A stretch of DNA of 46,617 bases, from IMG/VR virus record IMGVR_UViG_2541047681_000006; one strand, 5' to 3'. Made by a program: the position numbers and the translations under genes. Origin of the DNA: a virus (taxonomy: Duplodnaviria; Heunggongvirae; Uroviricota; Caudoviricetes). A model generated the notes under the pieces. That model was not told the DNA's origin and searched no databases. It saw only the letters and a program-made list of their open reading frames with translations. Positions 25,153 through 29,706 of the stretch are shown piece after piece (the stretch's first letter is position 1; every line of letters begins with the position of its first letter).

Positions 25153-26741
25153 AACGAACGCCTGTCCTGATTGATGTGAACGGCGTTCCGCTTCGTGAGA
25201 GTCTCAGCTACAACGGGGGCGGTGCAGGATTTGGCGGGCAAATGGCTGAGTGGTTGCCACCGGCGCAGAGTGCCGATGCGGCCCTGCTGCCCGCGTTGCG
25301 TCTGGGGAATGCCCGGGCAGATGATCTGGTGCGCAATAACGGAATAGCGGCTAATGCGGTGGCTCTGCATAAGGATCACATTGTCGGGCATATGTTTCTG
25401 ATCAGCTACCGTCCGAACTGGCGCTGGCTGGGGATGCGGGAGACCGCAGCAAAAAGCTTTGTCGATGAGGTGGAGGCGGCCTGGTCGGAATACGCCGAAG
25501 GGATGTTTGGCGAGATCGACGTGGAAGGAAAACGCACGTTCACGGAATTTATCCGTGAAGGTGTGGGCGTTCATGCGTTTAACGGCGAAATCTTTGTGCA
25601 GCCGGTCTGGGATACGGAAACCACGCAGTTATTCCGTACGCGTTTTAAAGCCGTGAGTCCGAAACGGGTGGACACGCCTGGACACGGTATGGGGAACCGT
25701 TTTCTGCGGGCCGGTGTGGAGGTCGATCGATATGGCCGTGCCGTCGCGTACCATATCTGTGAGGATGATTTTCCGTTCTCTGGTAGTGGACGATGGGAAC
25801 GGATCCCGCGTGAACTTCCCACCGGGCGTCCGGCCATGCTGCATATTTTCGAGCCGGTGGAGGACGGGCAGACCCGTGGGGCTAATCAGTTTTACAGCGT
25901 CATGGAACGGCTGAAGATGCTCGATTCCCTGCAGGCAACACAGCTTCAGTCGGCCATAGTGAAGGCGATGTATGCAGCGACGATTGAAAGTGAACTTGAT
26001 ACCGAAAAGGCCTTTGAATATATCGCCGGCGCGCCACAGGAGCAGAAGGATAATCCGCTTATTAATATTCTGGAGAAGTTTTCCAGCTGGTATGACACGA
26101 ATAACGTGACACTGGGCGGTGTCAAAATTCCGCACCTTTTCCCTGGTGATGATCTGAAACTACAGACTGCGCAGGATTCAGACAATGGATTTTCTGCGCT
26201 TGAACAGGCGCTGCTGCGGTATATCGCCGCCGGTCTTGGCGTTTCCTACGAACAGTTGTCCCGTGATTACTCGAAGGTCAGTTACTCAAGTGCCCGCGCC
26301 TCCGCCAATGAGTCGTGGCGCTATTTTATGGGGCGGCGAAAATTTATTGCGGCCCGGCTGGCCACGCAGATGTTTTCCTGCTGGCTGGAAGAGGCACTTC
26401 TTCGGGGGATTATTCGTCCGCCACGGGCACGTTTTGATTTTTATCAGGCGCGATCAGCCTGGTCACGGGCAGAGTGGATTGGTGCCGGAAGAATGGCCAT
26501 TGACGGGCTCAAGGAAGTCCAGGAATCAGTGATGCGCATTGAGGCCGGACTGAGCACGTATGAGAAAGAGCTGGCGCTGATGGGCGAGGATTATCAGGAC
26601 ATTTTCCGCCAGCAGGTCAGGGAATCTGCTGAGCGGCAAAAAGCCGGACTCTCACGTCCGGTGTGGATAGAGCAGGCGTATCAGCAGCAGATAGCGGAGA
26701 GTCGTAGGCCGGAAGAGGAGACAACACCACGTGAGACGTAA
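25149..26741 (+). CDS. B: portal protein gpB
   Basis: 530-aa product from ATG 25149; colinear with lambda gpB. Confidence 0.95.
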   Translation: MKRTPVLIDVNGVPLRESLSYNGGGAGFGGQMAEWLPPAQSADAALLPALRLGNARADDLVRNNGIAANAVALHKDHIVGHMFLISYRPNWRWLGMRETAAKSFVDEVEAAWSEYAEGMFGEIDVEGKRTFTEFIREGVGVHAFNGEIFVQPVWDTETTQLFRTRFKAVSPKRVDTPGHGMGNRFLRAGVEVDRYGRAVAYHICEDDFPFSGSGRWERIPRELPTGRPAMLHIFEPVEDGQTRGANQFYSVMERLKMLDSLQATQLQSAIVKAMYAATIESELDTEKAFEYIAGAPQEQKDNPLINILEKFSSWYDTNNVTLGGVKIPHLFPGDDLKLQTAQDSDNGFSALEQALLRYIAAGLGVSYEQLSRDYSKVSYSSARASANESWRYFMGRRKFIAARLATQMFSCWLEEALLRGIIRPPRARFDFYQARSAWSRAEWIGAGRMAIDGLKEVQESVMRIEAGLSTYEKELALMGEDYQDIFRQQVRESAERQKAGLSRPVWIEQAYQQQIAESRRPEEETTPRET

Positions 26742-28236
26742 TCTTTCACACATTATTGCCGCAGCATTCAATGAACCGCTGCTTCTGGAGCCCGCCTATG
26801 CGCGGGTTTTCTTTTGCGCGCTCGGGCGCGAGATGGGGGCAGCAAGTCTTTCGGTACCACAACAGCAGGTACAGTTTGATGCTCCCGGAATGCTGGCTGA
26901 AACGGACGAGTACATGGCCGGAGGTAAACGACCGGCCCGTGTTTACCGGGTGGTGAACGGTATTGCTGTACTGCCGGTGACCGGCACGCTGGTGCACCGG
27001 CTGGGTGGTATGCGGCCATTTTCCGGAATGACAGGCTATGACGGCATTGTCGCCTGTCTTCAGCAGGCAATGGCGGATAGCCAGGTGCGGGGCGTACTGC
27101 TGGACATTGACAGTCCGGGCGGGCAGGCCGCCGGCGCGTTTGACTGCGCTGACATGATTTACCGCCTCCGTCAGCAGAAGCCGGTCTGGGCACTGTGCAA
27201 TGACACGGCCTGTTCTGCAGCCATGCTGCTGGCGTCGGCCTGCTCCCGACGGCTGGTTACCCAGACATCCTGTATCGGCTCCATTGGCGTGATGATGAGC
27301 CATGTCAGCTATGCCGGTCATCTGGCGCAGGCCGGTGTGGATATCACGCTGATTTACTCAGGGGCGCACAAGGTGGATGGCAATCAGTTTGAAGCGTTGC
27401 CGGCAGAGGTTCGCCAGGACATGCAGCAGCGGATTGATGCGGCGCGCCGGATGTTTGCCGAAAAAGTGGCGATGTATACCGGTCTGTCTGTTGATGCCGT
27501 CACGGGAACAGAGGCTGCCGTTTTTGAAGGTCAGTCCGGCATTGAGGCCGGGCTGGCGGATGAATTAATCAATGCGTCGGATGCCATCAGTGTGATGGCC
27601 ACGGCGCTGAACAGTAATGTCAGAGGAGGCACTATGCCGCAATTAACTGCAACGGAAGCCGCCGCGCAGGAGAACCAGCGAGTGATGGGGATCCTGACAT
27701 GCCAGGAAGCGAAAGGACGTGAACAGCTTGCCACGATGCTGGCAGGACAACAGGGCATGAGCGTTGAACAGGCCCGGGCGATTCTGGCCGCGGCGGCACC
27801 GCAGCAGCCGGTGGCATCCACGCAGAGTGAAGCCGATCGCATTATGGCGTGTGAAGAAGCGAACGGTCGTGAACAACTGGCGGCAACGCTGGCGGCGATG
27901 CCGGAGATGACGGTGGAAAAAGCCCGCCCGATCCTGGCTGCTTCACCGCAGGCGGATGCCGGACCATCACTCCGTGATCAGATCATGGCACTGGATGAGG
28001 CAAAAGGGGCTGAGGCGCAGGCTGAACAGCTGGCTGCCTGCCCGGGAATGACAGTGGAGAGCGCCCGGGCTGTGCTGGCTGCGGGATCAGGTAAGGCAGA
28101 ACCGGTCTCTGCATCCACAACCGCCATGTTTGAACATTTCATGGCGAACCATTCACCGGCAGCGGTACAGGGTGGCGTGGCACAGACGTCAGCAGACGGT
28201 GATGCGGACGTGAAAATGCTCATGGCCATGCCATGA
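26731..28236 (+). CDS. C: head maturation protease / scaffold gpC (with nested Nu3-like scaffold region)
   Basis: 501-aa ORF (GTG start at 26731) matching lambda gpC, S49/ClpP-like N-terminal protease domain; C-terminal region carries three tandem copies of a motif present once in lambda. Confidence 0.9.
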   Translation: MRRNLSHIIAAAFNEPLLLEPAYARVFFCALGREMGAASLSVPQQQVQFDAPGMLAETDEYMAGGKRPARVYRVVNGIAVLPVTGTLVHRLGGMRPFSGMTGYDGIVACLQQAMADSQVRGVLLDIDSPGGQAAGAFDCADMIYRLRQQKPVWALCNDTACSAAMLLASACSRRLVTQTSCIGSIGVMMSHVSYAGHLAQAGVDITLIYSGAHKVDGNQFEALPAEVRQDMQQRIDAARRMFAEKVAMYTGLSVDAVTGTEAAVFEGQSGIEAGLADELINASDAISVMATALNSNVRGGTMPQLTATEAAAQENQRVMGILTCQEAKGREQLATMLAGQQGMSVEQARAILAAAAPQQPVASTQSEADRIMACEEANGREQLAATLAAMPEMTVEKARPILAASPQADAGPSLRDQIMALDEAKGAEAQAEQLAACPGMTVESARAVLAAGSGKAEPVSASTTAMFEHFMANHSPAAVQGGVAQTSADGDADVKMLMAMP

Positions 28237-28272: not shown

Positions 28273-28620
28273 ATGGTGACGAAAACCATCACTGAACAGC
28301 GTGCGGAAGTACGTATTTTTGCCGGTAATGATCCGGCTCATACCGCCACAGGCAGCAGCGGGATTTCCTCGCCAACACCGGCACTGACGCCCCTGATGCT
28401 GGATGAAGCCACCGGGAAACTGGTGGTCTGGGACGGACAGAAAGCCGGTAGTGCGGTTGGCATACTGGTACTGCCGCTTGAAGGCACAGAGACGGCGCTG
28501 ACGTATTACAAGTCGGGAACCTTTGCGACGGAGGCAATCCACTGGCCTGAAAGTGTGGATGAACACAAAAAGGCCAACGCCTTTGCTGGCAGTGCCCTGA
28601 GTCACGCGGCGCTGCCGTAA
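28273..28620 (+). CDS. D: head decoration protein gpD
   Basis: 115-aa ORF matching lambda D (DPAHTAT...TPLMLD...KSGTF). Confidence 0.9.
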   Translation: MVTKTITEQRAEVRIFAGNDPAHTATGSSGISSPTPALTPLMLDEATGKLVVWDGQKAGSAVGILVLPLEGTETALTYYKSGTFATEAIHWPESVDEHKKANAFAGSALSHAALP

Positions 28621-28677: not shown

Positions 28678-29706
28678 ATGGGATTGTTTACGACCCGCCA
28701 GTTACTCGGTTATACCGAACAAAAAGTTAAATTTCGTGCGCTGTTTCTGGAGCTGTTTTTCCGCCGTACGGTGAATTTCCATACCGAAGAGGTGATGCTG
28801 GACAAAATTACCGGAAAAACGCCGGTGGCGGCCTATGTCTCCCCGGTTGTTGAAGGAAAAGTGCTGCGTCATCGTGGTGGTGAAACCCGCGTGTTGCGTC
28901 CGGGCTACGTCAAGCCGAAACACGAATTTAATTACCAGCAGGCGGTTGAGCGCCTTCCTGGTGAAGATCCATCTCAACTGAATGATCCGGCTTACCGCCG
29001 TCTGCGTATCATTACCGATAACCTCAAACAGGAAGAGCACGCGATTGTCCAGGTGGAAGAAATGCAGGCGGTAAATGCTGTGTTGTATGGCAAATACACC
29101 ATGGAAGGAGACCAGTTCGAGAAAATTGAGGTCGATTTTGGCAGGTCGACGAAGAATAACATCACTCAGGGTAGTGGTAAGGAGTGGTCAAAACAGGATC
29201 GTGACACGTTCGATCCTACACATGATATTGACCTCTACTGCGACCTGGCCAGCGGTCTTGTGAATATTGCCATTATGGACGGTACCGTCTGGCGTCTTCT
29301 GAATGGTTTTAAGCTGTTCCGCGAAAAACTGGATACCCGTCGCGGTTCAAATTCTCAACTCGAAACGGCAGTGAAAGATCTGGGCGCAGTGGTGTCCTTC
29401 AAGGGGTATTACGGCGATCTGGCCATTGTGGTGGCGAAAACGTCTTATATAGCAGAAGACGGTATCGAAAAACGTTATCTTCCAGATGGCATGCTGGTTC
29501 TGGGGAATACTGCTGCAGATGGGATCCGTTGTTACGGTGCCATTCAGGATGCTCAGGCGTTGTCCGAAGGTGTGGTGGCCTCTTCCCGTTATCCGAAACA
29601 CTGGCTGACGGTAGGGGATCCCGCCCGTGAATTTACCATGACGCAGTCCGCGCCGCTGATGGTGTTGCCGGACCCGGATGAGTTTGTGGTGGTACAGGTG
29701 AAATAA
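28678..29706 (+). CDS. E: major capsid protein gpE
   Basis: 342-aa ORF matching lambda E along its length. Confidence 0.95.
   Translation: MGLFTTRQLLGYTEQKVKFRALFLELFFRRTVNFHTEEVMLDKITGKTPVAAYVSPVVEGKVLRHRGGETRVLRPGYVKPKHEFNYQQAVERLPGEDPSQLNDPAYRRLRIITDNLKQEEHAIVQVEEMQAVNAVLYGKYTMEGDQFEKIEVDFGRSTKNNITQGSGKEWSKQDRDTFDPTHDIDLYCDLASGLVNIAIMDGTVWRLLNGFKLFREKLDTRRGSNSQLETAVKDLGAVVSFKGYYGDLAIVVAKTSYIAEDGIEKRYLPDGMLVLGNTAADGIRCYGAIQDAQALSEGVVASSRYPKHWLTVGDPAREFTMTQSAPLMVLPDPDEFVVVQVK

Follow-up and report, generated by a model that had tools for sequence, protein, structure and literature searches.

What lies at the locus?

The stretch of DNA considered here, which we call the window, is 46,617 nucleotides long and comes from a virus of the class Caudoviricetes (IMG/VR record IMGVR_UViG_2541047681_000006); our interest is in its gene 5, a homologue of lambda gene C, and in gene 6, the homologue of lambda Nu3 that is nested within it (Table 1). 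Gene 5 starts with a GTG codon according to the ORF list, shares its first 11 nt with the end of the portal gene and specifies a product, gp5, of 501 amino acids. Pfam Peptidase_S49 (PF01343) matches gp5 at residues 146-293 (E 3.3e-35; 121.8 bits where 24.9 are required), the SppA domain models of NCBIfam give matches that stay under their own thresholds, and phrog_53, a head maturation protease profile, matches from end to end (E 2.8e-228). In addition, Ser162 and Lys214 of gp5 align with Ser166 and Lys218 of lambda gpC, which were reportedly described as its catalytic Ser/Lys by Medina and colleagues in 2010. Judging by its sequence, gp5 is a prohead protease of the lambda gpC type; an earlier note, made from the letters of this DNA alone, had taken the ORF to be exactly that, and the Peptidase_S49 and phrog_53 matches, together with the identity to phage 21 described below, bear it out.

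The setting is equally familiar, since the portal gene (ending at 26741), the protease/scaffold pair, a decoration gene (28273-28620) and the major capsid gene (28678-29706) follow one another in the B-C/Nu3-D-E order of lambda. Gene 5 is identical to that of phage 21 (M81255.1) at 1504 of 1506 nt (99.9%), the two differences lying at 27271 and 27848, and the genes of ev017 and PhiR57_1 are likewise 99.9% identical to gene 5/6 at the nucleotide level. At 27848 the window has C and phage 21 has T, a change from Val to Ala that turns IMVCEE into IMACEE in repeat 2, and Ala is the residue found here in most relatives in the alignment. In the phage 21 record OL657228.1 the two products are called capsid protease/scaffolding protein and scaffolding protein. 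Over its first 25 kb the window is collinear with PhiR57_1 at 99.7% identity and, outside gene 5/6, it is a different lambdoid mosaic from phage 21, resembling PhiR57_1. We therefore consider it very probable that gene 5/6 is the head protease/scaffold pair of a phage-21-type lambdoid phage, with a shared C-terminal scaffold domain that carries three Tri-box modules.

The nested start deserves some attention. The GAGGAGG-N4-ATG of gene 6 spans 27623-27636, and its lambda counterpart, caGGAGGgcgaATG, lies at the homologous codon M309 and reads GGAGG-N4-ATG. Given such a strong Shine-Dalgarno sequence and an in-frame ATG homologous to lambda M309, the nested product is best seen as a Nu3-type scaffold of 200 amino acids, and by analogy with the annotation of lambda and phage 21 it would be translated from 27634 and would act as a scaffold in prohead assembly. 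For lambda itself, two annotations of the scaffold start disagree: RefSeq NC_001416 places nu3 at 2333-2938 (201 aa), beginning at codon 239 of C, with no obvious Shine-Dalgarno sequence upstream of that codon, and the GGAGG-N4-ATG at codon 309 (position 2543) would give a protein of 131 aa, which is the length of the PHROG Nu3 profile (131 positions).

Table 1. Features of the gene 5/6 region, with positions in the window
Feature	Position	Strand	Basis
Gene 5, lambda C homologue: S49 prohead protease fused to scaffold domain	26731..28236	+	ORF, Pfam, PHROG, phage 21 identity
Shine-Dalgarno GAGGAGG, 4 nt 5' of ATG 27634	27623..27629	+	Sequence; putative RBS in M81255.1 and OL657228.1
Gene 6, predicted nested in-frame scaffolding protein, 200 aa, equal to the gp5 C-terminus	27634..28236	+	CDS in phage 21 records; phrog_8399
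Repeat 1 (Tri1), aa 314-358, ENQRVMGILTCQEAKGREQLATMLAGQQGMSVEQARAILAAAAPQ	27670..27804	+	HMM 75 bits; Tri1 box, 27701-27804
Linker 1, QPVAST	27805..27822	+	pLDDT <50 at gp6 residues 57-62
Repeat 2 (Tri2), aa 365-407, QSEADRIMACEEANGREQLAATLAAMPEMTVEKARPILAASPQ	27823..27951	+	HMM 86 bits; 'Tri box', 27841-27951
Linker 2, ADAG	27952..27963	+	Between HMM envelopes; mean pLDDT 62 at gp6 residues 101-110
Repeat 3 (Tri3), aa 412-455, PSLRDQIMALDEAKGAEAQAEQLAACPGMTVESARAVLAAGSGK	27964..28095	+	HMM 81 bits; Tri3 box, 27982-28095
C-terminal tail, aa 456-501, ending ...DADVKMLMAMP	28096..28233	+	dN/dS 0.48; two short predicted helices

Are there really three repeats?

The conserved Nu3 module (...IL.C.EA.GRE..A..LA..PGMTV..AR.ILAAAP) is present in three copies in gp6. 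A profile HMM built from the repeat units, with domain matches counted in the 501-aa gp5, recovers all three with domain E-values of 1e-23 to 1e-27, and phrog_8399, the Nu3 scaffolding protein profile, matches gp5 in three separate stretches. When the three C-terminal segments were aligned by Smith-Waterman among themselves and to the lambda segment, using 2000 composition-preserving shuffles, copies scored 83-101 against each other where the shuffle mean was ~26 (sd ~5), giving z values of 11.8-15.3, and not one of the 2000 shuffles reached an observed score. The best pairwise score of all, 137 (z 22.4), is that between repeat 1 and the lambda copy. A BLASTP self-comparison of gp5 returned the diagonal only, and tblastn with one repeat reports a single place per phage record, since the Ala-rich end is cut back by the low-complexity filter and weaker copies are lost.

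The earlier note had described three tandem copies in the C-terminal region of gpC, within its Nu3-like scaffold part, and had offered self-alignment as a check. The HMM and alignment scores uphold the number, the phrog_8399 matches and the position inside nested gene 6 uphold the setting, and the copies are significantly similar to one another. It had also given the unit as ~35 residues, and here only the location stands, because the HMM defines a unit of ~43-45 residues. Its further statements, that the copies had diverged at the nucleotide level and were not the product of a recent duplication, and that lambda gpC has one copy, agree with the codon comparisons and the phage survey given below.

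The beginning of the tail has some features of its own. At 28116-28160 (aa ~463-477, TTAMFEHFMANHSP) it resembles the opening helix of the unit, for which SEADRIMACEEA and SLRDQIMALDEA may be compared. In the DNA, 15 nt at 28131-28145 match the starts of repeats 2 and 3 in register, with spacings of 141 and 156 nt, and MAFFT aligns the start of the lambda tail (SDTALDRLMQG) to the start of repeat 2. From these likenesses, the tail of both phages may begin with a relic partial unit; no HMM match to such a unit was found in the tail.

Has this been seen before?

It has. The GenBank entry M81255.1 ("Bacteriophage 21 head gene operon") annotates gene 5, nested gene 6 and its ribosome-binding site, and in addition holds three repeat_region features called 'Tri1 box', 'Tri box' and 'Tri3 box', each noted as "function unknown; putative". 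Mapped onto the window, these boxes fall essentially where the earlier note had put its three copies. The primary phage 21 paper is, we believe, that of Smith and Feiss (1993, Gene 126:1-7). The novelty that the earlier note had implied does not stand, in view of the Tri boxes of M81255.1, of an identical architecture in Gifsy-1 (Salmonella) and of the presence of the repeat region in about a third of complete E. coli genomes. The triplication is a real, already annotated and widespread feature of phage-21-type head genes and, being both annotated in the phage 21 record and common, it is a correct but ordinary finding that matters little as a discovery.

How old is the triplication, and what maintains it?

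At the DNA level, the copies have diverged. They share 58-66% of their nucleotides; among the 19-21 codons per pair of copies that specify the same residue, 11-13 use a different synonymous codon, and identity at the third codon position is 0.37-0.40. Tandem Repeats Finder detects no tandem repeat in the DNA, and the only remnants are in-register matches of 12-15 nt at spacings of 141-156 nt. In a neighbour-joining tree of the units, repeat 1 falls together with the sole copies of lambda and N15, and repeats 2 and 3 of phage 21 each join their Gifsy-1 counterparts. Repeat 1 is orthologous to the one module that lambda, N15 and phi80 have, and the repeat-by-repeat orthology with Gifsy-1, taken with the codon divergence, places the triplication before the split between phage 21 and Gifsy-1.

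Measured against the Gifsy-1 homologue, dN/dS is ~0.11 for the repeats together (dS being saturated), 0.14 for the protease domain and 0.48 for the tail, which by this measure evolves ~4 times faster than the repeats. Each copy is under purifying selection, and this selection acts on the protein, not on the DNA.

How many copies do relatives carry?

A survey of gpC homologues for the copy number of the motif, which the earlier note had proposed, was run against 1.84 billion cluster representatives with the protease domain alone as query (aa 1-300), to avoid a bias towards repeat-rich proteins, and modules were counted by an iterated HMM in the best 150 representatives. Among the 115 of these that are at least 400 aa long, 81 have one module, 33 have none that is detectable and a single protein (P0095, 64% identical in the protease domain) has three. 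The module is therefore found in 82 of these 115 protease representatives, no other element of the C-terminal extension being so widely conserved, and the 33 homologues with no detectable copy indicate that it is not obligatory for fusions of an S49 protease to a scaffold. Of the named phages, phage 21 and Gifsy-1 have three modules by HMM and lambda (a single match, at aa 356-400), N15 and phi80 have one, with no further copies in the latter three even when thresholds were relaxed very far; a search of this kind for a relic second copy in lambda found none.

In single-copy homologues the module typically comes after a linker of ~48 aa, and the median length of the C-terminal extension is 140 aa; in gp5 a lead-in of about 12-14 aa precedes repeat 1 and the extension is 201 aa. 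In all homologues surveyed, the last module is followed by a tail of ~46-53 aa.

Close to home, the picture is uniform: each of the 77 complete close relatives from IMG/VR carries three modules, although the locus search with the protease domain returns relatives that are 98-99% identical only and is a population check, not a survey of diversity. The repeat region was found in 1870 of 5426 complete E. coli genomes. Searches with the scaffold itself are less informative, since the 200-aa sequence retrieves mostly fragments at contig ends and was used only to spot variants, and the three-repeat alignment retrieved 16 short fragments with no new contexts.

These variants, which occur among E. coli and Salmonella sequences and of which those listed here are from E. 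coli, are nonetheless worth describing. P0018 has two copies, repeat 2 having been lost precisely, and P0022 also has two, after a crossover between repeats 1 and 2; P0016, P0009 and P0011 have lost part of repeat 2 in frame, P0011 standing for a cluster of 53 sequences. The existence of such repeat-2 deletion alleles means that repeat 2 is dispensable or that those prophages are defective. In the other direction, P0032 (a partial sequence) has four copies, of which copies 2-4 are far more alike than those of phage 21, and this likeness suggests that the module was amplified there independently and more recently.

A few unusual architectures also came to light. P0046 (270 aa) joins a DNA methyltransferase-like N-terminus (...DLIVCDPPYG...) to a three-repeat scaffold C-terminus, and is probably a rearranged prophage or a mis-assembly. 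In P0101 (844 aa) and P0228 (698 aa), the gpC-like protease domain begins only at residue ~411 or ~347, which implies large N-terminal fusions, possibly of portal to protease; phrog_21 ('portal protein', 1362 positions) matches gpC as well.

What might the module look like?

Structure prediction on the repeat region, another course that the earlier note had suggested, gives a simple answer for the single unit, which AlphaFold models as three helices (pLDDT 82.9, pTM 0.58). The 200-aa gp6, predicted from an alignment of 17 sequences (pLDDT 65.5, pTM 0.26), shows the same pattern of helices three times over with low-confidence linkers between them; at this pTM the model does not define the arrangement of the modules relative to one another. 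Each unit is thus predicted to fold by itself into a small three-helix bundle, and short linkers in which Pro, Gln, Ser and Ala abound are predicted to connect the units like beads on a string. Further helices are predicted in the tail, at gp6 residues 160-173 and 190-197, with low pLDDT, and no coat-binding helix-turn-helix domain of the P22 type was recognised at the extreme C-terminus of gp5/gp6.

The predicted fold of a single unit superposes at 2-3 Å, over 42-46 residues, on protein A and the affibodies, on domain III of RuvA and on UBA/CUE domains, and protein A resembles the Tri repeats in being built of tandem modules too. A Foldseek comparison of the 200-aa model (pTM 0.26) with the PDB gave no match below E = 1, and a sequence search of the PDB gave no relative. 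A helix-hairpin-helix motif was considered and rejected: the Pfam HHH model matches repeat 3 alone, with 13 bits where 24 are required (E 0.096).

What might the module do?

Lambda Nu3 has been reported to interact with itself and with C, B and E (PMC3224144). We think that the module is most likely a protein-protein interaction unit of Nu3-type scaffolds, through which the scaffold would bind to itself and/or touch the inner surface of the major capsid protein or the portal. With the module shared by gp5 and gp6, the same contacts would bring a few protease molecules and many scaffold molecules into the prohead and, once the shell has been assembled, the scaffold would be broken down by the S49 protease (Ser162/Lys214), just as happens in lambda. 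With three copies the scaffold would be longer and trivalent, the copies filling the space that is taken in lambda by the low-complexity linker of ~45-50 aa. The earlier note had supposed a variant scaffold that could alter head assembly or protease docking, which is plausible, but none of the results speaks for a different head phenotype, and the triplication implies none. More speculatively, the module might be the elementary capsid- or portal-binding unit, its copy number (1, 2, 3 or 4) tuning the valency of the scaffold, with unequal recombination yielding working alleles and the repeat-2 deletion variants being functional phages; in this full form we hold the proposal only tentatively and rate it as possible, if somewhat doubtful.

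The main rival is that the modules are mostly spacers or protease substrates, which set the length or volume of the scaffold core and supply cleavage sites, and that the specific contacts with capsid or portal are made by the tail. Such a division of labour would resemble that of the P22, P2 and herpesvirus scaffolds, with their specific contacts at the C-terminal ends, and a tail does follow the last module in every homologue that we surveyed. In addition, three-copy proteins do without the ~48-aa linker of their single-copy homologues and have a longer extension (201 aa against a median of 140), and variants that have dispensed with repeat 2 exist. However, a pure spacer would not be expected to have a dN/dS of 0.11, nor the near-invariant surface residues E-A-K-G-R-E in every copy, and it is the tail, the supposed contact surface, that evolves so much faster than the repeats. 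This pattern of conservation counts against the modules as spacers or substrates, and we consider that explanation unlikely.

Far less probable is the idea that the boxes act as DNA or RNA, for example as protein-binding sites or translational signals, and are not protein modules at all. The historical name 'box' and the words "function unknown" in the record lend themselves to it, and in OL657228.1 two minus-strand sites within gene 6 are marked as matching the CII consensus TTGYNNNNNNTTGY. However, these matches (~27639-27652 and ~27873-27886) are out of register with the repeats, one of them lying upstream of repeat 1, and the copies share amino acids, not codons, with no tandem repeat found by TRF and selection acting on the protein; maintenance at the protein level and an old divergence argue together against a 'box' function in the DNA. 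To our eyes, the CII matches look like simple pattern matches. The most sceptical explanation, to which we give almost no credence, is that the repeat is a chance similarity in an Ala-rich region of low complexity, or else a recent duplication or an artefact of assembly. The region is certainly rich in Ala, Gln and Glu, and the low-complexity filter of BLAST masks part of it, but the shuffles and the HMM E-values refute chance, the low nucleotide identity between copies refutes a recent duplication, and the recurrence of three copies in independent phage 21 records, in Gifsy-1, in 77 IMG/VR contigs and in 1870 E. coli genomes refutes an artefact.

An interaction unit of Nu3-type scaffolds is the reading of the module with which we stay. 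In structural terms, the mechanism of the lambda scaffold is still poorly defined. The sole strongly conserved part of Nu3-type scaffolds would, if the models are right, be an autonomous three-helix module, and the natural alleles with 1, 2, 3 and 4 copies make up a ready series with which to ask what the module binds and whether its valency plays a part.

How does this compare with known systems?

In herpesviruses (UL26/UL26.5) and in phage P2 (gpO), the protease has its C-terminal assembly domain in common with an abundant scaffold, so that both enter the procapsid, and the protease later removes the scaffold. The recruitment of gp5 along with gp6 through a shared C-terminus would follow the same logic, although this is an analogy only, the folds and the protease families being unrelated, and we know of no tandem three-helix modules in UL26/UL26.5 or gpO. 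Much nearer is the gpC homologue of Gifsy-1, from Salmonella, which has three modules at the same positions, each orthologous to a repeat here, and which is ~70% identical to gp5 in amino acid sequence, with a tail that has diverged to 30%. Nearest of all are genes 5 and 6 of phage 21, where the same gene, the same nested start and three annotated repeat regions are found and nothing of substance is different. Lambda gpC/gpNu3, finally, is 57% identical to gp5 over the aligned positions and has in common with gp5/gp6 the gene order, the catalytic Ser/Lys, the position of the internal Shine-Dalgarno sequence and ATG, the module and the kind of C-terminal tail; the difference is that lambda has one module, placed after its low-complexity linker, so that Nu3 counted from M309 comes to 131 aa, compared with the 200 aa of the three-module scaffold in the window.
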